64,000 nt of DNA. It comes from a virus. The position numbers and the translations under genes are program-made. The notes beneath the pieces were generated by a model. That model did no database searches. It saw nothing but the letters and a program-made list of their open reading frames with translations, and had not been told where the DNA came from. Of this stretch, positions 18,907 through 35,641 are shown piece by piece. Each line of letters begins with the position of its first letter. Position 1 is the first letter of the stretch. The DNA lies in the IMG/VR virus record IMGVR_UViG_3300037264_001719, positions 18,332 through 82,331 of that record; one strand, written 5' to 3'.

Positions 18907-19194
18907 ATGTGTTGCGGAAAACGAGTCAGAACCAGCGATGAGCCCAAGCTGCCCTCTCGGGGGATCAATGCGCCCATTTTCGGTCGTGCCTCGGTCATTC
19001 CGGCTCCCCCCACTCCAAGGTCTATCAAGCCGCCCACGGTTCCGGTGAAGCCCTCCACGGTCTTCTCCATCAAGGAGATCGACGAGGTTTGCCCCAAGTG
19101 TGCCTGCAAGCTGGCGGTGCAACTGAGGTTCAGCGACCGCTTGCGGAGGTACTACGAGACCAAGTGGTGTCCCAAGTGCAAGGAGGGTCGTTGA
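18907..19194 (+). CDS. small Cys-rich protein (MCCGK, CPKC x2)
   Basis: AGGAG RBS; two CxxC pairs. Confidence 0.65.
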   Translation: MCCGKRVRTSDEPKLPSRGINAPIFGRASVIPAPPTPRSIKPPTVPVKPSTVFSIKEIDEVCPKCACKLAVQLRFSDRLRRYYETKWCPKCKEGR

Positions 19195-19195
19195 C

Positions 19196-19600
19196 GTGCT
19201 GGAGATCGTCGTACTCAAGCTGGCCGTCGCCACTATCGTCGTCGAGGCGGTGACGGAGGTCTTCGTCGATAGCGCCCTCTTCGAGAGCTTCCGCAAATGG
19301 ATCGGAGGCGAGAGGGAAGAAGGTCTCGCCCGCAAGTACGGGCTCAAGGGAGTGCTCGTGTGGTGCGGCTACTGTGTGTCCGTTTCCATCGGGATCGGCA
19401 CGGCCTATCTCCTCTGGATCGACGGGATTCACCATCTCGATCCCCGGCTTGCGCGGCTCGCGCCATTTGAGCCTGCCCTGTGGGGGCTCGTCGTCCATCG
19501 GCTCTCGAACCTGTGGCATGAGACGGTCCTTCGCTACCTCAAGCAGATTCCGTTCTCCCTTTTCCTGCGGGTGTGGAAGCAGGAGGACAAGGACAAGTGA
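19196..19600 (+). CDS. DUF1360-like membrane protein with CxxC
   Basis: Hydrophobic helices, EAVTEV..DS.LFE..R and WCGYCVSV motifs. Confidence 0.65.
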   Translation: MLEIVVLKLAVATIVVEAVTEVFVDSALFESFRKWIGGEREEGLARKYGLKGVLVWCGYCVSVSIGIGTAYLLWIDGIHHLDPRLARLAPFEPALWGLVVHRLSNLWHETVLRYLKQIPFSLFLRVWKQEDKDK

Positions 19601-20610
19601 ACCCGACTCAGGGGAGCGATCACCAAGAGCGCCGCTACTGGGGAAAGTATCGGGGCGTCGTGACGGACAATCAGGACCCCGAGCGCCTCGGTCGCGTGAA
19701 GTGCCGCGTGCCGGAGTTGCTCGGGCAGGCCATTGTCACGGATTGGGCGTTTCCGACTGATCTTTCTTATGGGGGAGGTCAGGACTACGGGAAATTCGTC
19801 GTGCCTCCGGTCGGTTCCGGCGTCTACGTCGAGTTCGAGTCGGGGGAGGTAAATCGTCCGCTTTATGGGGGCGTGTGGTACGGCCATCCGAAGGGGAAGC
19901 CCGCCGATCCTCCGAAACTCACTCGGCAGGACGGTCAGACCAAGTTCAGCGACGACGACAGCACCAAGTCCCCGAAGGGGGACGACACGCTCACGGCGGC
20001 GGACTGCTCGGTACACAACCAGCCCAAGTCGCCTGCCGCCCCGGTCTATCCCCACAACCAAGTGCTTCGCACCAAGGAGAACGGGATCATCGTGGAGATC
20101 GACGACACGCCCGGAAAGAGCCGGGTCCATGTCTTTCACGGACCCTCGAAGTCGTGGCTCGAACTCGACCACGCGGGGGAGCTTTCCATCCGAATTGCGG
20201 ACAAAGCCTACACGCTCATCGAGAAGGACAGTCGCGTTCACGTCAAGGGGGACCGCCACGTCTCCGTGGACGGGAATCTGACCCATTTCGCCAAGGGGGA
20301 TCGCTGGATGCGGGTCAACGGGAAGGAGACCAAGATCGTCAACGGGGAACATGATGCGTTCGCCATCGGCCCGGAGACGAAGGTGAGTCAGGGCGGATTC
20401 AAGCATTTCGTTCTCGGGGATCGCGTGGATGTGATTATCGGGAACTACACCCAGTACGTCATCGGAAGGTACGAGACCAACGTGTACGGGTTCTATTCTC
20501 GTATGGCGATGTCCGCCATCGAAGATGCGGCTCCGGGGATTCTCCATCGCGGAGGGGCACCGACCGGAACGCCGCCGGGATTTCCCGCCCCTCCTCCTGT
20601 GTGTGGGTAG
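19597..20610 (+). CDS. baseplate spike (gpV/gp5/VgrG OB-fold plus beta-helix)
   Basis: YWGKYRGVVTDNQDPERLGRVK, PPVGSGVYVEFESG, YPHN, EIDDTPG, repeated VxG strands. Confidence 0.92.
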   Translation: MNPTQGSDHQERRYWGKYRGVVTDNQDPERLGRVKCRVPELLGQAIVTDWAFPTDLSYGGGQDYGKFVVPPVGSGVYVEFESGEVNRPLYGGVWYGHPKGKPADPPKLTRQDGQTKFSDDDSTKSPKGDDTLTAADCSVHNQPKSPAAPVYPHNQVLRTKENGIIVEIDDTPGKSRVHVFHGPSKSWLELDHAGELSIRIADKAYTLIEKDSRVHVKGDRHVSVDGNLTHFAKGDRWMRVNGKETKIVNGEHDAFAIGPETKVSQGGFKHFVLGDRVDVIIGNYTQYVIGRYETNVYGFYSRMAMSAIEDAAPGILHRGGAPTGTPPGFPAPPPVCG

Positions 20611-20613
20611 GCT

Positions 20614-21054
20614 ATGGCCTGTACTCTCCAGACCGACTCCGACCAATGGCTCGCCCTCTTCGGGGCCGATGAAGCTCTCCGTCAATGTGTCGCTGAAGTA
20701 TTCGGCGTCATCGACGTGCAGATCACGGACAACACCCTCACGGAGATCAGTCTTTTCATCGGACTCCTCCAATCGGAACTCGCCCGGCTTCTCGTGGTCA
20801 TCGACATCACCTTGGCGCACGATGCGTGCATTCAAGTCATCATCAACGCGCTCGCCGCACTCGGAGCCCCCACCTCGGAAACGAATGCGCTGTTGGCGGA
20901 TATGCAGGCGAGGGCGCTCGCGGTACAGGAACAGCTTATTGAACTCCAGACGGCGGCGACTCTTATGCCGCTCCAGATTCTCCAGCAGGAGCTTCTCAAG
21001 CTCGAACTCGAATGCCAGAAGGCAAACTCGGAGTTCTTCAATAACGTCACCTGA
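20614..21054 (+). CDS. helical coiled-coil hypothetical protein
   Basis: Leu/Gln/Ala-rich 146 aa ORF in operon. Confidence 0.65.
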   Translation: MACTLQTDSDQWLALFGADEALRQCVAEVFGVIDVQITDNTLTEISLFIGLLQSELARLLVVIDITLAHDACIQVIINALAALGAPTSETNALLADMQARALAVQEQLIELQTAATLMPLQILQQELLKLELECQKANSEFFNNVT

Positions 21055-21072
21055 TAGGATGCCGAGAGACCT

Positions 21073-21435
21073 ATGAGTGTTCCTGTTGTGGGTCCGGGCG
21101 ACATCGAGCACGCCCATTGTGGTTCGCCTACGTCCCATTTTGTAGCTCCGGGTATTCCCGCCCGGATCATCACTTGCGATCCTGTCGCATCGGGAGGGGG
21201 CACGGGGCTCCCCGGCCCCGGGTGCGGGCTGTCTCGGATCGGAGATTTGGTGGAGCCCCATCCTCACGGAGATGACTTCCATCCCGCCAATCAGATTCAA
21301 GGGCCGGGTTCGTTCCTTACGTTTCTCTCCGGGCAACGGGCGTCAATCGTGGGCGATGTGTGTCAATGCGGGGCGGTGGTACTGCCCGATGACGGCCAGT
21401 TCTGCGGAGCCTTCAAAGTGTTCACGGGGGTTTAG
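21073..21435 (+). CDS. PAAR-like spike tip protein
   Basis: GD..HAHC, RIGDLVEPHPH, GQRASIVGDVCQCGA. Confidence 0.8.
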   Translation: MSVPVVGPGDIEHAHCGSPTSHFVAPGIPARIITCDPVASGGGTGLPGPGCGLSRIGDLVEPHPHGDDFHPANQIQGPGSFLTFLSGQRASIVGDVCQCGAVVLPDDGQFCGAFKVFTGV

Positions 21436-21436
21436 C

Positions 21437-21910
21437 ATGGCGGGAATCCGAGATTTCCTCAAGGTGCTTCCCGATACGAGATTGGATTTCGTCGTGAATG
21501 TCATCACCGATCTCCAAGACAGCACTTCCGGGGCGAGGATCGAAAAGCTCCGTCAGTTTCTTTCGGCACTCACCTTCGAGATCGACGGGATCAACCGGAA
21601 GCGGGATGCTCTCGGTCAGAAGGTCGCCAACATCGACACGCTCCTTCCGATCCTCGACGAGAACCTCAAGTCGAGTCCCGATCTTGAGATGGAGCTTCTC
21701 AGGAACACCCTTCTCGGGTGGCGAGCCTCCCTCAAGGGGGAGATTGCCGAACTTCGACCCAACGGGAAGCTCGAAAAGAAGTATGATACGGAGAGGAAGA
21801 GGGACCTCCTGATCCAGCTTCAAAGCGTTGCATCTCAACTCAATGAGCAGATGCAACGGGCTCGGGGTGCAATCGGATTGCACCCTGACGAAATCTCGGA
21901 AGGGAAGTAG
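21437..21910 (+). CDS. coiled-coil hypothetical protein
   Basis: ATG 21437 just after PAAR stop; heptad-rich. Confidence 0.65.
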   Translation: MAGIRDFLKVLPDTRLDFVVNVITDLQDSTSGARIEKLRQFLSALTFEIDGINRKRDALGQKVANIDTLLPILDENLKSSPDLEMELLRNTLLGWRASLKGEIAELRPNGKLEKKYDTERKRDLLIQLQSVASQLNEQMQRARGAIGLHPDEISEGK

Positions 21911-22357
21911 ATGGCGGTAAAACCGGACATCGTTGGTCGTGGGTGGTCTTTCCCCTTCCGATTCACGGGAATCGGAAGGGTGAACAAGATCGTCGGTGTC
22001 GAGAAGGCATTCGGTATCGAGAAGATCAACATGGCGATCCGCCAGATTCTCGGGACCAAGCTCGGAAGCAGGGTCATCGACCGTGATTTCGGGAGTGATC
22101 TTCGGGGGATCATCTTCGAGCCCATCGACCAGCTTTCGGCCACACGGCTCCAGCTTGCGGTCTCGGAGGCGATCCAAACGTGGGAGAAGAGGGTGGAGCT
22201 TCTCAACGTCGAGGTCAGTTTGCTCCGATCTCGGGAGGGCGTTCTCGAAACTCGCGTGGAGTATCAGGTCATCACCACGCAACAGATCGGGAATCTCGTG
22301 TACCCCTTCTACCTCACCCCGGAGATGAGGGTGCAGGGGCAGATCACGATTGGTTAG
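21911..22357 (+). CDS. baseplate gp25/GPW-like sheath initiator
   Basis: GRGWSFPF, ILGTKLGSRV..RDFGS, WEKRV, NLVYPFYL. Confidence 0.93.
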   Translation: MAVKPDIVGRGWSFPFRFTGIGRVNKIVGVEKAFGIEKINMAIRQILGTKLGSRVIDRDFGSDLRGIIFEPIDQLSATRLQLAVSEAIQTWEKRVELLNVEVSLLRSREGVLETRVEYQVITTQQIGNLVYPFYLTPEMRVQGQITIG

Positions 22358-22364
22358 GTGAACG

Positions 22365-24143
22365 ATGGCAAACGGAACGACTACCAGTTCTTTTACGAAA
22401 CTCTCTCAGCGCATCCCGCCCATCGACTATACCTCGCGGGATTTCGAGTCGATCTCGCAGGACATGGTGCGGACCATTCCGTTCTTCGCGCCGGAGTGGA
22501 CCGACCACAACCTGTCGGACTTCGGCATCGTCCTCCAGCGGCTTCTCGCCTTCGTGTCGGACGTTCTCCACTTCTACATCGACCGTGGCGTGAACGAGGC
22601 GTTCCTTCCGACCGCGATCACTCGGCGTTCGGTCATCAACCTGCTCAAGCTCATCGACTTCGAGCTTCGGGGTTCGGTGCCTGCGAGCGTGGACGTGGAG
22701 TTCTCCATTCAGGAGGCTCTCCCCGGAGACCTTCTCATTCCCGCAGGGACGGAACTCCAGACTACGACGGATGTGACGGGTCAGCCCATCTTCTTCGAGA
22801 CCGTGGAGGATGTTGTGATCCCGGCGGGGCAACTCACCGCCGTCGTGTCCGCCGTCGAGGGTCAGACCAAGAGCGAGGACGTGGGCGTGAGCACGGGGCT
22901 TTCCCGCCAGAGGTTCGACCTCGTTGGGATTCCGGTCATTGACGGGTCGCTCCAAATCCTCATCGACGAGGGCGTGGGCGAACAACTCTGGATCGAAGTG
23001 GACACTTTCATTCTCAGCGAGGACACGGACAGGCACTTCACGTCCCAAAAGGACGAGAACAACAAGGCGACGATCTTCTTCGGGGACAATGCACAGGGGA
23101 AGATTCCCGATCCGGGCTCTCTCATTCGAGCGGTCTACCGGGTGGGCGGTGGGCTTGAAGGGAACGTCCCCGCCGAGTCGATCACCGTCATCAATCGGAC
23201 TTTCACGTTCAACGCCCAGCCCGTCAACGTCGAAGTCACGAACCCGAGCAACGCCTCCGGCGGTGAAAATGAAATGTCCATCGACGAGGCCAAGGTGCTC
23301 GGGCCTCAGAGTCTTCGCGCCCTTTATCGCGCAGTCACGGAAGAGGACTACATCGCCCTCTCGGAGAACTTCCCCGGAATCGCCAAGGCGTCTGTCTCGG
23401 TGGGGGGTTCTCCGGTGGACCCGATCACGGGCTGTTGCTGTTGCGTGACGGTCTTCATCGCGCCCCGGGGCGGCGGGCCTCCCTCCACCCAACTCAAGGA
23501 AGACCTGCTCGCCTACCTCGATGAGCGGAAGATGGTCGGGACGTGCCTCAAGATTGGAAACCCCGAGTACGCCAAGGTGGACATGAAGGGGACCGTCTTC
23601 ATCGGGTCCAACTTCGCAACCAATCAACTCGTCCTTTCCGTGGATGAGGCGATTGCGAAGTTCTTCGATCCTGTCGGGGATTTCACCCGGTTCGGGACGC
23701 CCATCTTCCTCTCGGACCTCTATCATCTGCTCGATGCGATCCCGGGGGTGGATCACGTCGATTTGCCCGAAGTGACCAAGCAGCCGAACCCGGTGAACGA
23801 AGTCGGATCGACTTGCACGCTCCAAGACTTCATCGTCGGGGAGGAGTCCAAGGAGGAGAAGTGGACGCTCATTTTTGTCTCCCCCACGACCTTCACTCTC
23901 CGGGGGACCGTAAGTGGGTTGCAGGTTAATGCCGGGACGGTCGGAGTGCCCTACAGTTCCGACAAGAGTGAAATCTCCTTCAAGGTTGTCTGCACCGCGC
24001 CCCCCAGCATCGGGGACAGGATCGGTTTCACGACGAGCAAGAAGGCGGCGAATGTCCCGATGGGTCCGAACCAGATCGCGCAACAGGGAAATACCCAATT
24101 CACCTTCGTCGGTGGAGCCCGCCCGTTGACGGAGTGCCCATGA
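22365..24143 (+). CDS. baseplate wedge J/gp6-like protein
   Basis: IDYTSRDFES, PEWTD, FGDNAQGKIP, YRVGGGLEGNV, RAVTEEDY. Confidence 0.93.
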   Translation: MANGTTTSSFTKLSQRIPPIDYTSRDFESISQDMVRTIPFFAPEWTDHNLSDFGIVLQRLLAFVSDVLHFYIDRGVNEAFLPTAITRRSVINLLKLIDFELRGSVPASVDVEFSIQEALPGDLLIPAGTELQTTTDVTGQPIFFETVEDVVIPAGQLTAVVSAVEGQTKSEDVGVSTGLSRQRFDLVGIPVIDGSLQILIDEGVGEQLWIEVDTFILSEDTDRHFTSQKDENNKATIFFGDNAQGKIPDPGSLIRAVYRVGGGLEGNVPAESITVINRTFTFNAQPVNVEVTNPSNASGGENEMSIDEAKVLGPQSLRALYRAVTEEDYIALSENFPGIAKASVSVGGSPVDPITGCCCCVTVFIAPRGGGPPSTQLKEDLLAYLDERKMVGTCLKIGNPEYAKVDMKGTVFIGSNFATNQLVLSVDEAIAKFFDPVGDFTRFGTPIFLSDLYHLLDAIPGVDHVDLPEVTKQPNPVNEVGSTCTLQDFIVGEESKEEKWTLIFVSPTTFTLRGTVSGLQVNAGTVGVPYSSDKSEISFKVVCTAPPSIGDRIGFTTSKKAANVPMGPNQIAQQGNTQFTFVGGARPLTECP

Positions 24144-24379
24144 CCGAAAAATTTGCCAACGTCGATTGGGACAAGCTCTCCCCCGAGGAGAAACTGCGGG
24201 TCCGGCAGGCCGAAGTATGGACCAGCCGGGTCAAGCTCACGGAGGCGACCGCCCGAGCTTTCGACTCCCTCATGCGGCAGGCGGGGCTTACGGAAGAGGA
24301 GATCACGAAGTACCGGAAGTATCTGGAGGAAATCGTCACTTCCATCCATCGGAAGCATGACGAATCGGTGAATGTCTGA
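24140..24379 (+). CDS. small helical hypothetical protein
   Basis: ATGA overlap with J stop; overlaps next start. Confidence 0.6.
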   Translation: MTEKFANVDWDKLSPEEKLRVRQAEVWTSRVKLTEATARAFDSLMRQAGLTEEEITKYRKYLEEIVTSIHRKHDESVNV

Positions 24380-26153
24380 CCCCAACTGCCCCCCTCTCGG
24401 GGATGACATCCTCCCGTTCCCTGAATGTACTGATCCCATCTCCGGGCCGCAGGGAGGATTCGACGCCTTCGGGAGCCCGAAGCTCGTCAAGAACGTGCGA
24501 ATCCGGCGCGGCCTTGAAGGTCCGCAACTCATTCTCGAATGGGACGCCCCCAATGAAGTTCCAGAGTTCGGGGGCGGACTCACCCGCGTCATGCGGAAGC
24601 TCTACGACTTCTCCCGTAGCCCGGACGATGGGATGCTCGTTTTCGAGAAACCCACCGAAGACGACAACCGATTCGTAGCGGACATCGACCTCGATCCCTG
24701 CAAGTGCTACTACTACACGATCTTCACCTTCGATCCCGTAGACGGGCGGTGGAGGTACTCCCTCGATACGCAGGCCGAGGAGATCGCCATTCCCACGGGG
24801 TTCTTCACCACAGAACTCTTCAAGCTCCTGCCGGAACTCTACGTCTTCGGGGACAAGCATCTCGACGAGGACATCGATAGCAAGGAATCCAACGTCTTCG
24901 CTCTCGAAAAGACGTTCAGCCCCGAGGAGCGTGAGTGGTTCAACCTCTACGAAAACACCGATCCCACGAAGGAGCCCATCAAGAAGGGGCCTCTCCAGAG
25001 GTTCATGAGGACCCTCGCCATCGAGCCCGACATCGTGAAGGGCTTGATCGACTGTATGCCTATCCTGTGGGACGTGGACGAGACCTGTTGCGAAGTCCTT
25101 CCCGCACTCGGGGCGCTCATCGGGCTCGAAGTCAATCAGGAATTCGATTGCGCCAAGCAACGGCAGGAGATCAAGCAGCAAGTCGCCATCTACAAGATCA
25201 AGGGAACCAAGGCGGGACTCCGCGCCCGAGCCCTCTCCGTCGCAGGGCTTTCCGGCGACATCCATGAGTGGTCGAACAACATCCTCATCGCCAACAGGAT
25301 CGACCGGACGAGTCTCGCTTTCCCGAATGCGGGATTCTCCTCTAAGTTCATGCTTCCCGGGGACGATACCTCGTACACCCCGGGAGGGGTGATCGGGTTC
25401 GTCCGGTTCTGCATCTTCCTCAATCTCGACTGCGACGACTGCCTCGCCCAGCAAGTCGTGGAGAAACTCATCAGGGAGTTGGGCCGAGAGATTCCGGTCT
25501 GCCGGATCGGGCACGTCATTTTCGTCGATTGCAAGTGGGTCGAGTGCTACGACACCCTCCGGCGGGTTCAGGAGACCTCGAAGGACATCATCAAAGATTA
25601 CATCATCGAGGACTTCCGCACCCATTGTTGGCTCATCACGAATCGGCTCACGGACACCAACTCCCCGCCGCCGCTCGGCCCGGACCTCAACCTGCCGTTC
25701 GAGCATCACTACACGAACAGCATCCACGCGCTCACGGCCAACCCGTTCCGGGTCTGTCAGGAAATCTGGTACGACGACATTGAGCAGGCATCCAAGGACA
25801 TCGAAGACCTTTCCGACTGCTGGCTCATCTCCAATCGGATCGAGCGGATCACCAACACGTTCCGCTGGCGGACGCCGCCCGTGGACGAATCCCGGTGCAT
25901 CCCCCTCGACGATTGGTACGACGAAGTGCAGGTGGGCGAGTTTGTCGAGCCCGTCAACTGCGAGACTCTCGGCCTCCTCTTCATCTCGAACCGTCCGGCG
26001 GGGCACCCGGACCTCCCGCCGAGCCTTACGAACACCCTCCAGTCGCTCGTCGGGCCGTGCTTCGTGGCGGGGGAGTTCTGGTACGACGAGATCATCTGCG
26101 CTGGACGAATCAACCGTGGCAGGATAAACTGTGCAAGAATCAATCAGCCGTAG
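24372..26153 (+). CDS. baseplate wedge gpI/gp7-like protein, Cys-rich
   Basis: LFKLLPELY, LPALGALIG, RQEIK..AIYKIKGTKAG (P2 gpI-like core); FN3-like N-terminus. Confidence 0.8.
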   Translation: MSDPNCPPLGDDILPFPECTDPISGPQGGFDAFGSPKLVKNVRIRRGLEGPQLILEWDAPNEVPEFGGGLTRVMRKLYDFSRSPDDGMLVFEKPTEDDNRFVADIDLDPCKCYYYTIFTFDPVDGRWRYSLDTQAEEIAIPTGFFTTELFKLLPELYVFGDKHLDEDIDSKESNVFALEKTFSPEEREWFNLYENTDPTKEPIKKGPLQRFMRTLAIEPDIVKGLIDCMPILWDVDETCCEVLPALGALIGLEVNQEFDCAKQRQEIKQQVAIYKIKGTKAGLRARALSVAGLSGDIHEWSNNILIANRIDRTSLAFPNAGFSSKFMLPGDDTSYTPGGVIGFVRFCIFLNLDCDDCLAQQVVEKLIRELGREIPVCRIGHVIFVDCKWVECYDTLRRVQETSKDIIKDYIIEDFRTHCWLITNRLTDTNSPPPLGPDLNLPFEHHYTNSIHALTANPFRVCQEIWYDDIEQASKDIEDLSDCWLISNRIERITNTFRWRTPPVDESRCIPLDDWYDEVQVGEFVEPVNCETLGLLFISNRPAGHPDLPPSLTNTLQSLVGPCFVAGEFWYDEIICAGRINRGRINCARINQP

Positions 26154-26165: not shown

Positions 26166-28769
26166 ATGGGCATCGAATCCGGCTGGGACGAGTGGGGCGA
26201 CCAACACCTCATTCTCGACGAACGGGCGTCTGCCTTCTGCCGCTACGTCAAGAACTTCATCCTCAAAGGATTCGGGCTTGCCCCGGGTATCGGGTTGCAG
26301 ACCATCGTCGGGGACCTCGGCCTCAACGTGGCCTACGTCAACGGCTACGAGGTCAAGCAACAGAACGCCGTGGCGCTCGGGCTCACCGCATCGGCCACGA
26401 ACCACATCTTCCTCAAGTTCACTCGGACGCCCGACATCGTGGCGGGGGTCTCGGCCATCTCAATTTCGTACACGGTCAATACCTCGGGCACCCAGCCCGC
26501 CGACTCCATCAAGCTCGGGACCGTCACAACGGACGGTGTGGGCGTGACGGCGATCACCCCGCAGAACAACAAGTTCAAGATTCACGACGCCCAACTTGAG
26601 ACCGACATCGACGGGAATCTCAATCGGATCACCCGCCTCGTCATCAACGGGGGACCAGCTTTTCCGACCGTTCCCGCCCCCCTCGCTGGGGAGCTTTTCG
26701 TCCGAACCGATCTGCCCGGAGACCCCCTTTTCCGGTTCGATGGGGACGCGGTGGCTTGGGTTTCGGCGGGTGCCGGGGGCGGGGGAGTCACCAAGATTCG
26801 GGAAGACGGGACGCTCATCGAATCCGCCGCCACGGAGATCGACTTCCAAGACGGACTCATCGCGGATTTGATCGCCGCAGGAGTCGTCAAGGTCAATCTG
26901 GATTACGGCGTCACCCCCTCGACCATCCTTCCCGACGACGTTGCGGCTCCCGGCATCTCCCCCTCGGTTGCCCGAGAGGATCACGTTCACGCCATCGGAG
27001 CGGACACTCCGGTTGACATCGCGCAGGCCAACGCCGAGGGCACGGACGCCACCTTCGCCCGGTCGGACCACGAACACTCCCACGGAGACCAACCTCTCGG
27101 GGACGGACTCGACCATGCGCTTGTGACCCCGGACCCCGGCGGCGTGGCCGGGTTCATGTCGCCTGCGGACAAGGAAAAGCTGGACGACTCTGGAATCCTG
27201 ACCAGCACGGCACCCCCGCAAATCGACATCGGAGATGCCGCCGTTGTCGGAGTCTCCGGTGAAGCCGCCCGAGCGGACCACCAACACGCGCTTCCGATTC
27301 CGACCTTTGTTTCAACGATTGACCCGGACGATGCTCCATCTCTCGGGGTCTCCACGATTCCGGCGAGGGAAGATCACCAACACGCCATTGTGACGGACGC
27401 CCCCGTTGACGTGGCTCAAGCCAACGTGGAGGGCGTGTCGGGAGCCTTCTCCCGCGCCGACCACGTTCACAGCCACGGAGATCAGCCCATCGGAGACGGG
27501 CTGGATCACGCTATCGTGACGGCCCTGTTCGCCGGGTTCATGTCCCCCTCGATGCTCTCCACCCTCACGGGATCGGCCCTGTGGGGGAAAATGATCTTCG
27601 TGGATGACGTGTACGGGGACGACGCAACGGCTCTCAGGGAGCGAAAGGACAAGCCGTTCAAGACCCTCGCGGCGGCGGCTGTGGCGACGGGGATCGCGTC
27701 GGGGGATGTCATCCTGCTCCTGCCCGGAACCTACGACATGGCGGCGGACTTCACCATTCCGGTAGGCGTGGCTATCCGGGGTGTGGAAAGGGGGACAGTT
27801 ATCATCCAAAGACTCCTCACCGTCGTAAGTGCCACGCTCATCACGATGGGGAGTGGTTCCAGCTTGGGCGACGTGACGCTCCGGCTGACTTCCGCCGTGA
27901 ACACGGCGACCCTGCTTCGGGGGGTGAGCTTCCCCGGTGCAACCACCACGACGGCCAAGCTCCGAAACGTCCGCGTCGAAGTCGAGAACGTGGCGGTTTC
28001 CGTGGCCGATTCGACCGACGTGATCGGCGTTCGAGTTGGTTCGACGGGAACGCCCGGAAAGTACCACTCGAATCTCGAAGACGTGGAAATTCTCGTCCAG
28101 ACGAAGGGGAACGGGAAGAAGCGTTGCCTCTTGCTTGACACCTCGGGCGGCGTGGCGAACTGCCGGAACGTGAACTCCCTTCTGGAACGGCAGGGCGGGG
28201 CTCCGGGTGCGCCGAACTACATCGCGGTCGAGATCGACCAAGTGGGCGCGACCTTGTATATGCAGGACGGCTCCTCGGAAATCTCCCCTGTCACCGCCGG
28301 GGCGGATGCGTCTCAGACGACCGGATCGCTCCAACTCTCGAACCATGTCCTTGTCACGAACAACGCCAACGCCAAGGGGCTCACCGCCTACGACTCCAAC
28401 CATGAAGAGTGGTCGGTCGAGGGCGCGGTCACGAACGGTGCGGTGACGCGGTTCATGCGTCCCGGCTCTGCGCCCGAGTCCACGCTCGAAATCCAGAGGA
28501 GAATCACCCGTCCCATCATCCTTTTCGGGATCGCGCTTCTGGCCCGGCTGAACCCCGGCGTTCCGGGGGCTCAGACGACGACGGTGACGGTTCGGAAGAA
28601 CGGCGTGGATACGCTGGTCTTGGTCGCGCTTCCTGACGGGACGACGACTATCGCGTTCACGGCCAACGTCTCCGTGTCGTTCGCGGAGGGCGATCTGCTC
28701 TCCCTGAAGATCGTCTCGACGGGGACGAGCACGGCGACGGACGTACAGGCGACGTTGAGGCACTACTAG
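26166..28769 (+). CDS. tail fibre/spike with ARxDHxH repeats and C-terminal beta-helix
   Basis: AREDHVH, ARSDHEH, ARADHQH, AREDHQH, SRADHVH; GFMSPADKEKLD; KPFKTLAAA..GDVILLLPGTY beta-helix cap. Confidence 0.8.
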   Translation: MGIESGWDEWGDQHLILDERASAFCRYVKNFILKGFGLAPGIGLQTIVGDLGLNVAYVNGYEVKQQNAVALGLTASATNHIFLKFTRTPDIVAGVSAISISYTVNTSGTQPADSIKLGTVTTDGVGVTAITPQNNKFKIHDAQLETDIDGNLNRITRLVINGGPAFPTVPAPLAGELFVRTDLPGDPLFRFDGDAVAWVSAGAGGGGVTKIREDGTLIESAATEIDFQDGLIADLIAAGVVKVNLDYGVTPSTILPDDVAAPGISPSVAREDHVHAIGADTPVDIAQANAEGTDATFARSDHEHSHGDQPLGDGLDHALVTPDPGGVAGFMSPADKEKLDDSGILTSTAPPQIDIGDAAVVGVSGEAARADHQHALPIPTFVSTIDPDDAPSLGVSTIPAREDHQHAIVTDAPVDVAQANVEGVSGAFSRADHVHSHGDQPIGDGLDHAIVTALFAGFMSPSMLSTLTGSALWGKMIFVDDVYGDDATALRERKDKPFKTLAAAAVATGIASGDVILLLPGTYDMAADFTIPVGVAIRGVERGTVIIQRLLTVVSATLITMGSGSSLGDVTLRLTSAVNTATLLRGVSFPGATTTTAKLRNVRVEVENVAVSVADSTDVIGVRVGSTGTPGKYHSNLEDVEILVQTKGNGKKRCLLLDTSGGVANCRNVNSLLERQGGAPGAPNYIAVEIDQVGATLYMQDGSSEISPVTAGADASQTTGSLQLSNHVLVTNNANAKGLTAYDSNHEEWSVEGAVTNGAVTRFMRPGSAPESTLEIQRRITRPIILFGIALLARLNPGVPGAQTTTVTVRKNGVDTLVLVALPDGTTTIAFTANVSVSFAEGDLLSLKIVSTGTSTATDVQATLRHY

Positions 28770-28777: not shown

Positions 28778-29305
28778 ATGGCAACGGTGTTCAATCGGAC
28801 AACGCTGGAGCGCAGGGAAGGAGTTCCCGTCTCCGGTTACGACCCGGCAGAATGGCTCCTCGACCCCGACCTTGCGCCAGTCGCCGGAGTTTCCGATGAC
28901 TACTGGAAGATCGTCGGGGATTCGGTAGTCGAGATGACCGTGGCCGAAAAAGCCGCGAAGGACGCCCAGATTCTCGCGGTAGAAAAGAAGAGCAAGCTGT
29001 ACGAGTTCGAGATCGCGGTGGACTCGTACACGCAGGAGCACTATGACCTCCCCGCCCAGAGGATGCTCCTCGCCCTTCTGGACGAGTCGCGGCGGCTGGC
29101 GGTGCCCCTCTTGAACCGAGAGGCGTACATTCAGGGTGCCCTCAACTGGATCAAAACTGTCATTGGGTACTATATGCAACAGGGCGGGGCGGTCATGGCC
29201 CAGACGACCCCTGCCGGGGTTTCGGCGGTCCCCCTCAACTTGGCCCAATTCGACGCCGCAGACCCCCATGTAAGCGTTCCGGGGGCCATGATGACCACGA
29301 CGTAG
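28778..29305 (+). CDS. putative tail fibre assembly chaperone
   Basis: Follows fibre; YWKIVGDSVVEMT.AEK motif then helical C-terminus. Confidence 0.55.
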   Translation: MATVFNRTTLERREGVPVSGYDPAEWLLDPDLAPVAGVSDDYWKIVGDSVVEMTVAEKAAKDAQILAVEKKSKLYEFEIAVDSYTQEHYDLPAQRMLLALLDESRRLAVPLLNREAYIQGALNWIKTVIGYYMQQGGAVMAQTTPAGVSAVPLNLAQFDAADPHVSVPGAMMTTT

Positions 29306-29313: not shown

Positions 29314-30138
29314 ATGCCAGCGGTACGTTTCGTTGCGAGCGGAGGCTCTGCGAAGGGGCTTCTCGAAATCACCGGGGCGCTCTCAGCCCTCATCGAACAA
29401 GGAAACAGCATCGAGATCGGGGCTGGAACTTCGGCGGGAGGGGTGATCCTTGGAGCACTTGCCTCCGGGCGGTCGCCTTCGGAGATCAAGGACACCCTCA
29501 TGGGGATGGACTTCACCCGGTTCATTTCGACCGGGCTCTGGTCGAAGCTCCGGCTTCTCTCCTCCGGCAATCTCTCGAACGGAAAAGCCCTCCTCAAGTT
29601 CTTCGAGGAGTTCACTAAGGGGAAGACCTTCGGGGACTCCGGTTTCGATATCAGGATCACCGGGGCGGATTACAGCTTCGGACAGCCGCAGGTTTTCGCC
29701 AAGCAGACCCACAAGCAAATGCCTCTCGCGCTTGCCATGCGGATCACTTCGGCCATGCCTCTCGCTTTCGACGCCGTGGAGTACGACGCCCGCTGGTTTA
29801 AAGACGGCGGGGTGTACGCGCATATCCCCGTGGAGGCATCCCGGGAGCCGTTTCGGACAGTCATCTTTGCTCTCGCCCAAGACCCTGCCAGCATCAAGCG
29901 GGAAGCATGGGGGGCCGAACCCGGAATCATCCGCGAGATCGGTAGGACGGTAGATTTGCTCGTAGATGCGAATGTGAAAGCTGAACTGGACAAAGCACCG
30001 CCAGATGCTATAAAGGTGTTCTCGGATGGCCTTGGGTTTTCGGCCTTCAAGTTCGATTTCACGAGGGCCGAGAAGGAGCGTCTTTTCGCCCACGGGCATG
30101 AACTCATGGGCGCGGCGCTAAAGGTCGCCGGGCTGTAG
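29314..30138 (+). CDS. patatin-like phospholipase
   Basis: SGGSAKG oxyanion loop, GTSAG nucleophile, DGG catalytic Asp. Confidence 0.9.
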   Translation: MPAVRFVASGGSAKGLLEITGALSALIEQGNSIEIGAGTSAGGVILGALASGRSPSEIKDTLMGMDFTRFISTGLWSKLRLLSSGNLSNGKALLKFFEEFTKGKTFGDSGFDIRITGADYSFGQPQVFAKQTHKQMPLALAMRITSAMPLAFDAVEYDARWFKDGGVYAHIPVEASREPFRTVIFALAQDPASIKREAWGAEPGIIREIGRTVDLLVDANVKAELDKAPPDAIKVFSDGLGFSAFKFDFTRAEKERLFAHGHELMGAALKVAGL

Positions 30139-30151: not shown

Positions 30152-30754
30152 GTGGCAGAGCAGGGGAAAGGATCGGAGATGAAGGGTCTTCCTCCGGGGA
30201 AACCGGGCGTCGTGCGTGAAAGCTACGACGTTCGCTCGAAGTCGAAAGGCATCTGGCGCGACGAGGTTTACAAGGTCCTTCACGGGAAGGAAGTCCTCGT
30301 CGAGAATCTCGGCTGGCAATCGAATCTCATTGTCGTCGGGATGACCAAGCTCCTCGCCGGGCTCATGAAGAACGAGCCCAGCTTCACGGGCGGCATCCTC
30401 CAGCACGCGCAGGGACGCGGGCTTCCTTCCTTCGACACGGTTCTCCCCGTCCCTAGCTTCAACAGCGTCCAACTCACGGACGAATACTTCCGCAAGGCCC
30501 CGGATTCGATCTCCTATGTGGACAACGCCGGGAACCCTTCCATCCCCATCACGAACTCCATCCTCATCCGAACGACCCTCGATTTCAACGAGGCCAACGG
30601 GGTGAGCGGAGAGTTCATCCGCGAGCAGGGAATCTACGGGGGCGATGCGACCGGAGTAACGAATTCCGGGCTCCTCGCCAACCTGATCTTCCACAAGGCG
30701 CGGTTCAAGGATGCCAGCGTGAAGATCATCAGATTTATTCAGTTCATCTTCTAG
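30152..30754 (+). CDS. tail collar/fibre-attachment-like protein
   Basis: NLIV, LTDEYFRK, EANG..IREQGIYGGDAT. Confidence 0.7.
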   Translation: MAEQGKGSEMKGLPPGKPGVVRESYDVRSKSKGIWRDEVYKVLHGKEVLVENLGWQSNLIVVGMTKLLAGLMKNEPSFTGGILQHAQGRGLPSFDTVLPVPSFNSVQLTDEYFRKAPDSISYVDNAGNPSIPITNSILIRTTLDFNEANGVSGEFIREQGIYGGDATGVTNSGLLANLIFHKARFKDASVKIIRFIQFIF

Positions 30755-30758
30755 CCCT

Positions 30759-30786
30759 TTGGAAGAAAGCGACTTAACGGTATAAT
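30759..30786 (+). promoter_or_regulatory. putative promoter
   Basis: TTGGAA-16 bp-TATAAT in intergenic gap. Confidence 0.45.
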
Positions 30787-30814
30787 TCCCGGGAGTCGGT
30801 GAGGAGGTTCTGAG

Positions 30815-32770
30815 ATGGGCGCATCCTCGGCGGTGATTTCGAGGGATATGTACGACGAGGCGAAGCGGTACGTCCTCACCGTGCTTCAAGCTGGAGTTCC
30901 TCTGGTCGATGCGGATTACAACGACCAGATGGTGTCCTTCTTCACGCAAATCCGTCGATTCGTCTCGAACTCCATCGGAGACGGCGCTCGCGGGGTCGCC
31001 TTCAAGATCGAGCAGAACCCCGGCGATCTCGTCAACAACTTCAAGATCAGGGGCGGCGACCTCGGGGACGAGGGGCCGGAGCAACTCTACATCAAGGGCC
31101 ATCAGGCCCAGCTTTTCTCGGACGAGACCTACCTCGGGGGCGGCGAGACGGCTCCCGTCTCCACCGGGATCGCGGGGAGCATCCTCACCGATTCGGCGTC
31201 GAACTTCACGCCCGGGGCGCTGGTCGGTCTGACGCTCGTTCCGAATCTCGCCAACCCGACGCAGAGCTTCGTCATCACGGCCAACACGCAGAACTCGATC
31301 ACCTGTGCCGCCGCGATCAACGCGGTTTCGGCGGTGGGGGACCAGTACCGGGTCAAGCTCTCCACGCCCGTCGCGCCCCGGAACGATCTTGTGCTCCTCG
31401 ACGTGTACCTCGACGAGATCGACAAGTTCGAGGACTCGGACCTCGAACACAACATCGACTCCATCTTGATCGAAGCGATGCGCCGGAAGAAACTCATCCA
31501 GCGCATCTTCGTCATCGAGGGAGTGACGCTGCCCGTCATCCTTGCGCCGGGCTTCGTGGACGCGGACGGGAACCGTCACGTTCAGCTTCCTATCGCCCTT
31601 ATCTCCCGCCCCGCCGGAGACCCGAACATCACGGACCCCATGATTACGGACCTCCGGCGGAAGATTTTCACGCTGGATGCGGTGAACGACCTCTTCGTCA
31701 ACACGACCGGGGACACCATGACGGGGCCGCTCGTCATGGATGCCGACATCCAGATGCTTCCGGGCCGCAGGGTCACGGGCGTCTGTGTCATCGACGGCGA
31801 TGCGCTCTGCAACGAAGTCGTTGAGCAGAGGCATTTCCGCAGGGACAGCCACCTTCTCGGAGATGGAGACTCCGTTCCGAGTTTCGAGCAAGTCAACGAT
31901 CCGCTCAATCCCAACCATTTCAAGGTCCACGACAACCGCTACTACACGAAGTCTCAGGTGGACGAACTCATCGGGTCGAACCTCATCGCCAACGGAGGTT
32001 TCGAGAAGGGCCTCGACTGCTGGGATCATGCGTCCCCGGGCGTCCTCATCGGAGCCCCCATGTCGGAGGCGGCGGTGAATGTCCACGCCTCAATCGATCT
32101 CTGTGGCGCGGGTTGCAGCGAGGCCGCTTGTCAATGTCGCACGCTCCGAATCTGCGTGCGCCGGGGTAGCCGCCTTTGCTTCATCTGCCCCGTCCGTCAG
32201 GAAGTGGACTGTTTCGGATGCGGCGGGGAGTTCCTTCTCCTCCAGACCGTTTGCGTGTCGAAGGGGGACGACTTCATCATCCCCTTCGTCGTGCTCGACC
32301 TCTACTCCTCTTGCCAGTACGTCGGGACCAAGAAGTTCCGCCTTTTCGATCCGACTCCAGAGAAGCCCGGAATCGGGATCGACGACGGGTTCCTCCGGCT
32401 GGAGAAGAGAGTCTCGCTCCCGGGGTGTATCGACAAGGTGGTCTACACCCTTTGCTACGAGATCATCCCGAGGTCCGATCTCCCCGACGAGGAGGAGTAC
32501 GGCTACTTCTTCTACCAGCCCGAGGGCGAGTCCGACCTCAACCCGAAGTGCGAGGTGGGGGAGGAAGGGCTCGTGTGGGGGGTTTGCGGAACTCAGTTCC
32601 GCAGGATCAGCGGCCTCGAAGGGGCGTCCGATACGAAGACCGGGTGCGACCTCAATACGATTCCGATGATCGAGGTGTGCCATAGCGACGGGCGCGTGGA
32701 ATTCACGCCCGGTGTGGCGCAGGAATCGGTCATCATCGAACGGTTGGAGGAGAAGTGCCTGCCCCTCTAA
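30815..32770 (+). CDS. DUF6519-like tail protein with fibre motifs and a Cys-rich carbohydrate-binding-like C-terminus
   Basis: SRDMYDEAKRY..LQAGVPLVDADYND; VNTTGDTMTGPL; HDNRYYTKSQVD; NLIANGGFE. Confidence 0.7.
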   Translation: MGASSAVISRDMYDEAKRYVLTVLQAGVPLVDADYNDQMVSFFTQIRRFVSNSIGDGARGVAFKIEQNPGDLVNNFKIRGGDLGDEGPEQLYIKGHQAQLFSDETYLGGGETAPVSTGIAGSILTDSASNFTPGALVGLTLVPNLANPTQSFVITANTQNSITCAAAINAVSAVGDQYRVKLSTPVAPRNDLVLLDVYLDEIDKFEDSDLEHNIDSILIEAMRRKKLIQRIFVIEGVTLPVILAPGFVDADGNRHVQLPIALISRPAGDPNITDPMITDLRRKIFTLDAVNDLFVNTTGDTMTGPLVMDADIQMLPGRRVTGVCVIDGDALCNEVVEQRHFRRDSHLLGDGDSVPSFEQVNDPLNPNHFKVHDNRYYTKSQVDELIGSNLIANGGFEKGLDCWDHASPGVLIGAPMSEAAVNVHASIDLCGAGCSEAACQCRTLRICVRRGSRLCFICPVRQEVDCFGCGGEFLLLQTVCVSKGDDFIIPFVVLDLYSSCQYVGTKKFRLFDPTPEKPGIGIDDGFLRLEKRVSLPGCIDKVVYTLCYEIIPRSDLPDEEEYGYFFYQPEGESDLNPKCEVGEEGLVWGVCGTQFRRISGLEGASDTKTGCDLNTIPMIEVCHSDGRVEFTPGVAQESVIIERLEEKCLPL

Positions 32771-32797
32771 CTCGTGAAACCGTGAGGAGAGAAGTCT

Positions 32798-35641
32798 ATG
32801 GCTGGTGAACTTCCTACGGGAATTCTCCCACTCGATTTCCCCGGAGTCCAAATCAACCCGGGTTTGGGCTGTTGTGTGGATGAGGTCGAGGTTTCCATCC
32901 TTCCGATCCGCGCCTGCGAATGCTTCGATGAGTGCTTCGACATCGGGTACACCTATCAGGATCAATGCCCCTCCGTCGAACTCAACAAGCGTCTCGACAA
33001 GTGCATCCTTCCGCTCGTCGCTCTCGACCGGGACAAGACCAAGAAGATCGCCTATTGGGGGCAGAGCGAAGAAACGATCCGTGCTGCCGAGATTGTGATG
33101 GTCCCGGCGAAGTACAAGGACGATCCCATCGTCGGTCAGAACGGGAACGGGGGCTTCGATCCAGCGGGAGACCCCCTCCCCGGCGTCCTTGAGACGCTGG
33201 CCCGGGACACGCACACGCGGTATGGACACGTCGCTTTCAAGGTCCCGCCCTCGGTCGGATGCCGGAACATCTGGTGCGATCTCGTCTATCTCGACGAGGC
33301 CCTCTGCCTCGGGGTCCATCTTGAGAGCGAGGAGTACGAATTCTTCGACTCCGAATGCGCCTGCCTCGTGGTCGAGGTCACGGAGGAGATTTCCTCCTTC
33401 GTGACGGACAAGTGCCTGCCGCGCATCCTGCCGGATGACCAGTTCCAAGCCGCCGGGTGCCCTCCCCTCCCGGGCGGATACCCGGAGGCCGCGTCGTTCG
33501 AGTATTGCGCCCTTCCCCGGGTGGATCGCTTCGAGGAATCGGAGAACGCCTTCTTCAAGTTCCGCAGGGAGACGCCCGCGTGCGCCCGGGATGGGCAGGG
33601 CTACTTCGTCCGGGTGGAGATCACGTCCAAACAACTTCCGCTCTCGGTTCAATGGACGGATGTGCTTCCGCTCGGGAACAATCACACCCTCCTCTCAGGG
33701 TTGCCCACGGGCACTCTCGTCTTCACGGGCATCGGGGAAACCATCGTTCGGGAGTACGTCGTCAAGACGGGGCCGGGCGCGACGGATGCCGCGATCAACG
33801 GGTCCGCGCAGGTCGTGGCCCAGCCCTTGACGATCATCAACCTCCCCTCCGACACCATCGTCATCGACCCCAACTGCCCGACGCTTTGCTTCGTCCAGTT
33901 CGGGAGCCAGAATCCCAACGTCTTCGGCAAGGTCTTTTGGGCGGGCGGCGGTCGGTTCGATCCGGTCATTCCTCCCGACATCGGCCTGTGGGTGAAGATG
34001 TGGGCAGGGTCGGGATCGGTGGGCAAGTCGGTGAGGGAGCATCTTCTCTCCGCATCCACCACCGTCCCCAACGCGGCGGCGTCCCATGTTTTCGGAGTCG
34101 GCCCCGCCGCGTTTTCGGGATTCGCCATCGGTCTTCCGGTGTGGGTCTTCAACGGCTGCTTCGAGGACAACCCCCGACGCAGGATCGTTCTTCTCGACAT
34201 CGAGGCCGAGGAAGCCAAGCCCGATCCTGATGAGGCGATCACCGGGCTCTACGGGACCATCACGGCGCTCGACCCCATCCTTGCAACGGTGACGGTCACG
34301 TTCAACACGCCGCCGAATCAGGCTGTCGATTTCCTCACGACGGCGAAGGCGACCATGATGGTCTCCCCCGATCAAGCCAAGGGTTTCTACTGGGAGGCCA
34401 GCCCGCAACTTGTCGGACTCTGCGGTGATCCGGTGGGGCCGGGCGGGAATCTCTGCATTCTCCGCTGGAACTATCGCTTCTGGAATTCCACGCAGAACCC
34501 CTGCCCGACCACGCTCGGCGCGGGATACATCTGCGACGGAAACGGCGAGAGCTTCCAGTACGAGTTCCACGGCGATCTCGTCAAGGACATCCTCAACCCT
34601 GTGGACTGGATCGACCTGTGGGCGAGCCCCATGATCGAGGTGACGCTCTCGGAGGACGCAGACATCACGGATGTAGAGATCACGGTCTGCGACATCTGCA
34701 TCTTCGAGCCGTGCGACATCATCCAGATCGTAGACCTCAATTGCTCGGGGCGCGAGGGTAACGGGCCGGGCTTCGTGACCTCGGTTGTCTCGACATCCTC
34801 CGACGAGGAAGGGGATTGCGACGATTTTGGTGCCGCCAAGGGCGACATCCTTCTCGGAGACCCGATCCCGAGCACCATCGAAGGATGCGGAGATTTCGAC
34901 GGATTCAAGACCACTCGGAAGGCGAGGGCCTTCAAGAAGCCCGACGTGTGCCGCCATGCGTTCAGCGTCACGACCGATGCGGACGAGGACGGATGCCCCT
35001 CGATCTGCGGAGAACCTGCTCCCGAGTCGGTCCATGTGGACTTCGAGACCGGGAGGTTCACGTTTGACGAAAGCGTCTTCCTCCGCAACCCCCTCATTTG
35101 CTATCGGACGCTCGACATCACGGTGGACATTCCGTTGACGGACGGAATCTACTTCCTGCGCGGGATCGACAAGTGCGGATGCAAGAGCCCGCCCTCGAAA
35201 CCCATTCGGATGCTCGGTGCGGGAGGCCCGCCCCCGGCCCCGTTCGTTCGGGACACGACGAGCGGTTCGTTCTTCTTCGCGGCAGGCGCGTTCCTGCCCG
35301 TCGCGGGTATGTTCATCGGGCCGATCTCTCTGCCCGGCCCGTTCATCACCGTCGAACTGAATCTCGGGCAGGACAACTTCTCCGAAGTCGCCGTCCTTGT
35401 GGATGGTTCCGTCCTCGTCCCGCTTTCGGGCATGGTGTTCTACACCTTCGCGGATGATGTCGGATCGTTCGTCACGATGGTTCATGGATCGTGCGTCATT
35501 CCGGTTTCGCCCGGACTTCACACGTTTCAATTGATGGCCCGGGGAGCGACGGTGCTTCCGGGGTCAATCGGCTTCGGAACGACGATCTATGCCAACCCCT
35601 CCCTCCCGCTGGAGATGCGGTTGGACAAGCTGGGAGTCTAG
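32798..35641 (+). CDS. large Cys-rich acidic putative virion protein
   Basis: 947 aa, about 36 Cys, beta-rich, in tail operon with GAGGAG RBS. Confidence 0.7.
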   Translation: MAGELPTGILPLDFPGVQINPGLGCCVDEVEVSILPIRACECFDECFDIGYTYQDQCPSVELNKRLDKCILPLVALDRDKTKKIAYWGQSEETIRAAEIVMVPAKYKDDPIVGQNGNGGFDPAGDPLPGVLETLARDTHTRYGHVAFKVPPSVGCRNIWCDLVYLDEALCLGVHLESEEYEFFDSECACLVVEVTEEISSFVTDKCLPRILPDDQFQAAGCPPLPGGYPEAASFEYCALPRVDRFEESENAFFKFRRETPACARDGQGYFVRVEITSKQLPLSVQWTDVLPLGNNHTLLSGLPTGTLVFTGIGETIVREYVVKTGPGATDAAINGSAQVVAQPLTIINLPSDTIVIDPNCPTLCFVQFGSQNPNVFGKVFWAGGGRFDPVIPPDIGLWVKMWAGSGSVGKSVREHLLSASTTVPNAAASHVFGVGPAAFSGFAIGLPVWVFNGCFEDNPRRRIVLLDIEAEEAKPDPDEAITGLYGTITALDPILATVTVTFNTPPNQAVDFLTTAKATMMVSPDQAKGFYWEASPQLVGLCGDPVGPGGNLCILRWNYRFWNSTQNPCPTTLGAGYICDGNGESFQYEFHGDLVKDILNPVDWIDLWASPMIEVTLSEDADITDVEITVCDICIFEPCDIIQIVDLNCSGREGNGPGFVTSVVSTSSDEEGDCDDFGAAKGDILLGDPIPSTIEGCGDFDGFKTTRKARAFKKPDVCRHAFSVTTDADEDGCPSICGEPAPESVHVDFETGRFTFDESVFLRNPLICYRTLDITVDIPLTDGIYFLRGIDKCGCKSPPSKPIRMLGAGGPPPAPFVRDTTSGSFFFAAGAFLPVAGMFIGPISLPGPFITVELNLGQDNFSEVAVLVDGSVLVPLSGMVFYTFADDVGSFVTMVHGSCVIPVSPGLHTFQLMARGATVLPGSIGFGTTIYANPSLPLEMRLDKLGV

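Follow-up and report, generated by a model that had tools for sequence, protein, structure and literature searches.

A cysteine-rich baseplate and distal-tail module, probably disulfide-stapled, in a clade of uncultivated myoviruses, and the zinc-ribbon/DUF1360 gene pair that lies within it

The DNA analysed here, a stretch of 64,000 nucleotides that we call the window, is the part from base 18332 to base 82331 of one virus contig with a length of 82,331 bases (IMG/VR record IMGVR_UViG_3300037264_001719) from an uncultivated myovirus. Our subject is the region 18907-35641, in which cysteine-rich tail proteins are encoded together with two small genes, one for a zinc-ribbon protein and one for a membrane protein of the DUF1360 type. 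With moderate confidence, we interpret this region as the baseplate/distal-tail module of an uncultivated clade, in which the selected cysteines (Cys) are mostly disulfide staples and in a minority zinc sites, and in which the small-gene module is not specifically tied to Cys-rich baseplates. The original prediction had proposed a covalently or metal-stapled baseplate served by the two small genes as a dedicated disulfide or metal relay. Stapling of the baseplate and distal tail via Cys is supported, as far as sequences can tell, by clade-wide Cys conservation and by paired gain and loss of Cys beyond a null expectation. The dedicated relay, judged by the comparisons made in this analysis, is not supported.

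The proteins on which the argument is built are the following:

19573..20610, plus strand: central spike, gpV/gp5-like, 345 amino acids (aa), 3 Cys; Pfam Phage_base_V, E 4e-18
22365..24143, plus strand: Baseplate J wedge protein (gpJ), 592 aa, 8 Cys; Pfam Baseplate_J, E 9e-10
24372..26153, plus strand: gpI-like wedge/fibre-attachment protein, 593 aa, 22 Cys; Pfam Tail_P2_I, E 2.6e-7
30815..32770, plus strand: p651, putative distal tail/fibre protein, 651 aa, 22 Cys
32798..35641, plus strand: p947, putative distal tail/adhesin-like protein, 947 aa, 36 Cys; 11 homologues at 50-73% identity

The Cys counts given earlier for the last three proteins (22, 22 and 36) proved exact on translation, and the other observations of this kind were reproduced as well. 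In p651, 19 of the 22 Cys lie at residue 402 or later, in agreement with the described C-terminal concentration, and the GCCCC motif of Baseplate J is G356-C357-C358-C359-C360. Cys near protein ends were found where they had been reported: MCCGK in the protein starting at 18907, MACTL at 20614, MSDPNC at 24372, PPVCG at the end of the spike, TECP at the end of gpJ and KCLPL at the end of p651. The capsid (1 Cys in 460 residues), sheath (2 in 670) and tape measure (0 in 817) are indeed Cys-poor, as is the hub (1 in 428).

Cys makes up 1.46% of the residues encoded by the contig (364/24923 in 100 called open reading frames, ORFs), and 1.25% if the three big proteins are left out. Among the 26 called proteins of at least 300 aa, the gpI-like protein, p651 and p947 occupy ranks 1-3 with 3.4-3.8% Cys; against the 1.25% background the binomial tails are 9e-6, 4e-5 and 9e-9, respectively. 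With 8 Cys in 592 residues (the CCCC at 357-360, C394, C484, C543 and C591), gpJ is not enriched relative to the contig (P=0.46); it is enriched only in comparison with its outgroup homologues, which have a median of 2 Cys.

To follow these residues through the clade, related loci (designated L001 and so on) were gathered from collections of viral, metagenomic and genomic sequences, and a protein search supplied further ones. The gpI-like protein has eight Cys that are present in 12/12 sequences and two more (C354 and C387) in 11/12. In gpJ, C357-359, C394 and the penultimate C591 are conserved in 13/13, and p947 has 13 Cys found in 13/13 sequences. For p651, 14 Cys are present in all six ingroup sequences, and none of them in the homologue of the outgroup locus L112, which has 5 Cys in 737 residues. 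Identity at Cys positions exceeds that at other positions (0.72 vs 0.55, 0.76 vs 0.52 and 0.85 vs 0.61). In the spike, C344 is located two residues from the end, and 14 homologues likewise show Cys columns towards their C-terminus.

The Cys columns that vary in the clade were scored for partners with an identical presence pattern. As a null we used non-Cys residue patterns of equal frequency, with the phylogeny kept and 5000 draws. In p947, 11 columns have such a Cys partner while 3.5 were expected, a number reached in 0/5000 draws; in gpJ there are 10 such columns vs 4.55 expected (P=0.006). Among the five co-varying column pairs of gpJ, four (568/671, 574/666, 578/661 and 581/652) are in antiparallel register, which looks like the pattern expected of a staple between adjacent segments that has shifted its position between lineages. 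Individual losses also come in twos: L019 has lost C484 and C543 of gpJ together, and in L007 the gpI-like protein has lost C354 together with C387, with C357 and C377 kept. Conserved, co-varying residues yield as candidate bonded pairs C484/C543 in gpJ, C354/C387 and C357/C377 in the gpI-like protein, and C160/C718 and C206/C454 in p947. Taken together, the sequence comparisons point to Cys that are under selection and behave as pairs, as would be expected of disulfides.

Several points weigh against this interpretation. For the gpI-like protein (4 columns vs 0.89 expected, P=0.063) and the spike (4 vs 2.0, P=0.22) the covariation is not significant. The alignments comprise 12-14 sequences, some of them nearly identical. 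The Cys totals per protein are often odd, and several of the Cys clusters (CxC, CCC, CxxC...CxxC) are equally compatible with metal sites. Finally, should the host inhabit anoxic sediment, the medium around free virions may be a reducing one, in which disulfides would be hard to keep.

Some of these points would be accounted for if most of the conserved Cys were metal ligands, either for Zn or for Fe-S clusters as in tail tips of the lambda gpL type, which would suit a phage living in anoxic sediment. Tail-tip proteins of the lambda type are known to contain Fe-S clusters. In p651, C455xxC458...C466xxC469 and C430x3Cx4CxC would fit such sites; CxC and CC in the gpI-like protein, CCC in gpJ, two CxxC pairs in a T4_baseplate-like protein encoded further upstream, and the odd totals are also in line with metal binding. 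However, the changes affect two Cys at a time rather than three or four. The position of the gpJ pair shifts along two antiparallel segments, as one would expect of a staple that joins two strands but not of a metal site, which would stay in place. In L007, loss of C354 and C387 with C357 and C377 kept would wreck a four-Cys site, while it fits two nested disulfides. We consider metal ligation an unlikely role for most of these residues. For a minority of the Cys, those in CxxC...CxxC arrangements in the p651 insert, the PAAR-like protein and the small zinc-ribbon protein, zinc sites are the more likely assignment. C455xxC458...C466xxC469 of p651 looks like a zinc site; it is located in an insert (455-480) that is absent from the L112 homologue.

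The two big distal proteins gave little purchase to other methods. Neither p651 nor p947, nor the relatives of approximately 1.9 thousand aa, nor the L112 homologues had a Pfam match, and p651 and p947 had no PHROG match. A pattern scan of viral contigs returned no relatives of p947; the protein search then gave the 11 homologues mentioned above. The AlphaFold2 (AF2) model of p947 is poor, with a predicted local distance difference test score (pLDDT) of 56.9 and a predicted template-modelling score (pTM) of 0.28. Foldseek returned for it only weak rows of the beta-sandwich, C1q-like, carbohydrate-binding-module and tail-tip kind, with template-modelling (TM) scores of approximately 0.1 on the query, and p947 is called no more than 'adhesin-like' here. 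Longer homologues of p947 exist in L092 (4514-10465), L094 (8576-14407) and L095 (8546-14455); they comprise approximately 1950-1984 aa with 44-50 Cys, which corresponds to approximately 1000 extra residues compared to p947 of the window.

Cys-stapled baseplates are already known from cyanophage Pam3 and Agrobacterium phage Milano, and thus this clade adds a case. In Pam3, the wedge proteins gp22 and gp23, which are of the gpJ/gp6 type, have Cys-rich regions through which disulfides are made within and between subunits and the fibres are attached; dithiothreitol (DTT) releases the fibres, and reduction dismantles the baseplate (PMC9942802). The account of Milano describes cross-linking of all tail parts, including the wedges, hub and receptor-binding proteins, with several bonds formed via Cys3 or Cys22 (PMC10811340). 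Further cases of virion disulfides are described for a siphovirus tube (PMC13576161) and for phage Jabs, the preprint on which calls the source of the disulfides an open question.

Like Pam3, the present virus has a contractile tail with Cys-rich wedge proteins. A close sequence relation is not apparent, Pam3 being absent from the best 30 of 568 tblastn matches of gpJ. Unlike in Pam3, the Cys load predicted from the genes extends here to two big distal proteins and is larger. We also considered a fibre attachment in the Pam3 style, with the N-terminal Cys of the fibre-like protein (26166-28769) bonding to the CCC of gpJ. This was rejected: C25 is unique among 10 homologues, and in this respect, too, the clade differs from Pam3, since the fibre Cys is not conserved. 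With the Agrobacterium phages Milano and 7-7-1 the clade has in common the terminal position of Cys, including C591 of gpJ, which recalls the bonds via Cys3 and Cys22 described for Milano. According to the same account, the cross-links of Milano also extend to its sheath and tube, whereas here the sheath (2/670) and the tube proteins are Cys-poor.

The hub-spike interval is occupied by the two small genes, as the original prediction had described:

18907..19194, plus strand: small 'Cys-hook' zinc-ribbon protein, 95 aa, 7 Cys: M-C-C-G-K, a Pro-rich linker and C62xxC65...C88xxC91
19196..19600, plus strand: divergent DUF1360-type membrane protein, 134 aa, 2 Cys, three long helices

The second of them is hydrophobic and contains the motif W56-C-G-Y-C60. 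That it had been called 'DUF1360-like' proved right by transitive homology. The protein itself has no PF07098 (DUF1360) match, neither in the Pfam scan at E up to 10 nor in a PF07098 scan of the contig at E<=1, and its match to phrog_781 has an E of 0.0011. Close homologues are few. A profile built from six of them finds 428 representative clusters at E<=1e-3; among the 79 aligned relatives, 52 match PF07098 at E<=0.01, and the motifs are common to the family. In the Atlas, PF07098 is assigned to 14% of the members of its first neighbour cluster, and the second neighbour cluster bears the name DUF1360. Pfam DUF1360 and PHROG 781 have the same length and three-helix layout as the window protein. 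A published passage that mentions DUF1360 gives no function for it. When the window protein, the L052 member, P0115 and P0152 were compared by tblastn with 50,697 phage records in search of cultured carriers, no match was obtained, which the low-complexity filter and the short hydrophobic queries may explain; no claim is therefore made for cultured phages as a whole.

The CxxC, whose lack of conservation would have counted against the original prediction, is conserved in 155/155 sequences. C57, C60 and S62 are present in all of them, E17 in 154, and H101, R102, N105 and H108 in 150-152. Around these, the motifs read C57-G-Y-C60-x-S62 and H101-R102-x-S104-N105-x-x-H108, with E21, R33 and the W64 position also near-invariant. 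The loop preceding the CxxC helix (26-53) carries on average 4.15 Lys and Arg over the 155 sequences, compared to 0.41 in the loop 76-92. Thus, by the positive-inside rule, the CxxC side is probably cytoplasmic, and the site made up of the CxxC, two His and two Glu is probably buried in that same half of the membrane.

It is tempting to speculate that this protein is a quinone-coupled membrane thiol oxidase with a cytoplasmic CxxC, whose partner shuttles oxidising equivalents via its Cys-Cys end to the baseplate during assembly, so that a disulfide-rich baseplate would have become affordable only after the pair had been acquired. The invariant CxxC at a helix start, which reads CPYC in 11/155 sequences, would fit such an enzyme. 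Moreover, the conserved polar residues all fall in the predicted cytoplasmic half of the membrane, on the side on which phage proteins fold, and the partner, in which the N-terminal Cys-Cys is invariant, lacks a signal peptide. The structural comparisons speak against it. The AF2 model shows three long helices with high confidence (pLDDT 95.4). In a Foldseek search of the PDB (95 rows) the best E was 2.8, with VKOR at rank 22 and a TM-score of 0.19. VIA-align against 48,161 chains gave a best Z of 6.0, and its 50 best matches included neither DsbB nor VKOR; for helical bundles, a match becomes meaningful only at a far higher Z. The likeness of the WCGYC protein to VKOR and DsbB, suggested by the original prediction, is a partial one: like these enzymes it is small, helical and membrane-embedded, with a CxxC where a transmembrane helix begins and with conserved Arg and His nearby, but it has three helices instead of four, one Cys pair instead of two, a CxxC that is predicted to be cytoplasmic and not periplasmic, and, in the searches above, no match to their fold. 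Of the family members, 60/155 have exactly 2 Cys.

The poxvirus E10R-A2.5L-G4L relay is a case of virus-encoded oxidation of virion proteins in the reducing cytoplasm. A Pfam scan of 38 window proteins revealed no second shuttle pair, no thioredoxin-fold protein and no Erv/ALR flavoenzyme, the first 18 kb of the contig and the remaining window genes being outside that scan.

The partner, described earlier as a soluble protein with two CxxC, reads as an ordinary zinc ribbon. An alignment of 15 homologues shows no variation at M1, C2, C62, C65, C88 and C91, while C3 and G4 reach 90% or more; for the family, the N-terminal motif is given as M-x-C-C-G. The two CxxC knuckles, C62/C65 and C88/C91, are present in 15/15 and show the spacing of a zinc ribbon (approximately 20-25 residues apart). 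The Pfam matches are sub-threshold only (Phage_zn_bind_2, E 0.023; Cys_rich_KTR, E 0.16). Its gene stops 1 nt before the start of the DUF1360-type gene and is located directly upstream of DUF1360 in all ingroup loci. A match of a zinc-ribbon hidden Markov model (ZnR-HMM) was found directly upstream of 23/61 distinct DUF1360 genes, those of distant phages included. Thus, the hook gene and DUF1360 form a real, widespread and tightly coupled gene pair. In four loci (L013, L014, L015 and L029; 9044-9676 and 10001-10411 in the last of these) the hook gene is followed by two tandem DUF1360 paralogues.

The original prediction had also expected the DUF1360-like gene to co-occur with Cys-rich tails, and this was borne out in part. 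In the loci with enough upstream DNA, the pair is located between hub and spike in 12/12 Cys-rich ingroup loci, the gpJ proteins of which have 7-12 Cys. Neither gene is present in any of the 12 outgroup loci, in which gpJ has 0-6 Cys; in L112, for example, the hub is followed directly by the spike. Bacillus phage BCD7 and Streptomyces phage BRock, the closest cultured relatives by gpJ (approximately 30% identity, among the best 30 of 568 tblastn matches), have Cys-poor baseplates and lack the pair. This perfect clade-level co-occurrence is just what a dedicated helper would predict, and it weighs against our preferred reading, under which it is a coincidence of descent; like the 1-nt spacing of the two genes, it speaks for the thiol oxidase. 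However, the clade contrast represents a single evolutionary event. Three independent jumbo phages (3 of 5 records searched had a match) carry the pair together with a Cys-free Baseplate_J (0/548, 0/531 and 0/557). Conversely, no match to the DUF1360 family profile or to PF07098 was found in the complete genomes of Milano and 7-7-1 (0/2), although their baseplate disulfides have been mapped; the hook gene is absent from them as well. As a positive control, the same search recovers 4/4 known DUF1360 carriers at approximately 1e-39. Since Milano and 7-7-1 lack DUF1360, it is not needed for virion disulfides. Elsewhere, DUF1360 follows a major head protein or lies among SSB, exonuclease, PDDEXK and HNH genes. 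The link between the hook/DUF1360 pair and Cys-rich baseplates is thus mostly loosened. Given the single contrast, the carriers with Cys-free gpJ, the varied contexts, Milano and 7-7-1, and the single Cys pair, we regard the oxidase as quite improbable.

Two further observations concern DUF1360 loci outside the clade. In L044, L051, L060, L074, L083 and L089, DUF1360 is preceded by two Cys-rich proteins with 16-21 Cys each; those of L060 match HNH (E 0.001, below the cut-off) and the Mom/GNAT family, and they are not structural proteins. In L052-type loci DUF1360 lies beside a capsid gene whose product has two invariant Cys. This lead was dropped, because the 16 capsid sequences are 81-95% identical and the invariance is uninformative.

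Another explanation is that the pair has a membrane function unrelated to the virion Cys, such as a metal-bridged tether, S-acylation of the Cys-Cys, lysis timing or superinfection exclusion, and merely happens to reside in a tail operon here. The varied genomic contexts and the carriers with Cys-free gpJ are what it would lead one to expect. The combination of two Cys, two His and two Glu resembles a metal or catalytic site, and in the 305-aa relative P0067 DUF1360 is fused to a Cys/His-rich C-terminal domain with CxxCxGxG-like motifs, a natural fusion that could serve to model the docking of Cys-rich partners. An N-terminus of the form M-G-C-C-G-K/R resembles those of eukaryotic proteins with dual palmitoylation. 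On the other hand, none of the 12 ingroup loci has the pair anywhere but between hub and spike, and the Pfam and PHROG scans gave no match to an acyltransferase, a holin or an exclusion family. We consider this explanation possible, if somewhat doubtful, and the functions named are candidates.

Returning to the disulfide-stapled module that we favour, its history and assembly could be pictured as follows. The wedge proteins (gpJ and the gpI-like protein), the spike, p651 and p947 would have acquired many Cys, which were kept under selection. By analogy with Pam3 and Milano, most of them would pair as intra- and inter-subunit disulfides that lock the baseplate and its appendages. Bond formation would probably be a late event, taking place once the particle is assembled, at lysis or afterwards, and no dedicated enzyme would be required. 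The DUF1360 site would be metal- or thiol-binding, and the Cys-Cys end of the partner may dock there.

By Pfam scans, a complete virion module of the contractile-tail type is encoded on the plus strand. Its upstream part comprises the portal, capsid, sheath, two gp19-type tube proteins, the T4_baseplate-like protein and the tape measure; downstream follow the hub, spike, a weak PAAR, gp25, Baseplate_J, the Tail_P2_I-like protein, fibre, patatin and the orphans p651 and p947. The genes of this part that were not listed above are:

17612..18898, plus strand: baseplate hub, gpD-like, 428 aa, 1 Cys; Pfam Phage_GPD, E 4.9e-8
20614..21054, plus strand: conserved protein (MACTL...), 146 aa, 4 Cys; homologues in L001, L003 and L016
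21073..21435, plus strand: PAAR-like spike tip, 120 aa, 6 Cys; PAAR_motif, E 0.0011 (below the cut-off); phrog_281, E 2.4e-4
21272..21910, plus strand: conserved baseplate protein, likely approximately 158 aa from the ATG at 21437, no Cys
21911..22357, plus strand: wedge protein of the gp25/gpW sheath-initiator type, 0 Cys; Pfam GPW_gp25, E 8e-16
24134..24379, plus strand: conserved protein, 81 aa, 0 Cys; homologues in L001, L006, L016 and L017
26166..28769, plus strand: fibre-like protein, 867 aa, 3 Cys; N-terminal alignment of 10 homologues
28778..29305, plus strand: protein of 175 aa, 0 Cys, no Pfam family match
29314..30138, plus strand: patatin-like phospholipase, 0 Cys; Pfam Patatin, E 9e-24
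30152..30754, plus strand: protein always preceding p651, 200 aa, 0 Cys; homologues in L010 and L112; phrog_5417, E 0.0013

Homologues of the hub are encoded directly upstream of the small-gene pair in all ingroup loci. The Pfam and PHROG scans gave no family match for the proteins at 20614..21054 and 26166..28769. The longest ORF at 21272..21910 overlaps the PAAR-like gene by 164 nt, with its 5' part in another frame; since the homologues of 155-161 aa align to the C-terminal part only, the real start is probably the ATG at 21437. The patatin-like gene is a conserved member of the tail module and in several relatives is located directly after the gpI-like gene; patatin genes adjoining gpI were found in L002 (12091-12978), L003 (11394-12224), L008 (1072-1974) and L009 (1306-1986).

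Cys-containing proteins are also encoded outside the region. The T4_baseplate-like protein, whose gene (13284-14081) precedes that of the tape measure, contains 8 Cys, among them C114xxC117 and C238xxC241, which probably form a zinc site; its counterparts in BRock and BCD7 have 5 and 6 Cys. The product of 184-699, a gene that precedes the portal gene, comprises 171 aa with 7 Cys and has a BppU_N domain, and at 56894-57943 lies the gene of a 349-aa protein with the putative zinc- or iron-chelating CxxCxxCC domain PF03692 (E 3e-8).

The contig has a G+C content of approximately 60% and an estimated completeness of 51% (CheckV). Two near-identical relatives of approximately 110 kb, L010 and L011, which have gene order and protein ends in common, are found in metagenome-assembled genomes (MAGs) labelled Methanomicrobiales and Bathyarchaeia, and one relative of p947 is labelled Actinomycetes. 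The conflicting labels, two archaeal orders and Actinomycetes, probably reflect mis-binned viral contigs, and therefore no host is assigned.

Disulfide-locked phage tails have been seen in structures only recently, in Pam3, Milano, Jabs and the siphovirus tube, and in them the redox state seems to be linked to how stable the particle is and how it is triggered. The clade described here is an uncultivated, environmentally widespread example, in which the Cys load is placed in the wedge and the distal appendages and for which specific candidate bonded pairs can be named. The hook/DUF1360 genes, with 428 representative clusters, constitute a large uncharacterised phage gene family. Although we hold out little hope for it, the pair may be an unrecognised phage machine that oxidises, or loads with metal, Cys-rich virion proteins at the cytoplasmic face of the membrane, and its acquisition between hub and spike may have let the clade evolve a Cys-stapled baseplate. 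If this were true, it would answer how phage virion disulfides are made, the question posed in the Jabs preprint, and a true thiol or metal handler for virion proteins would fill this stated gap.

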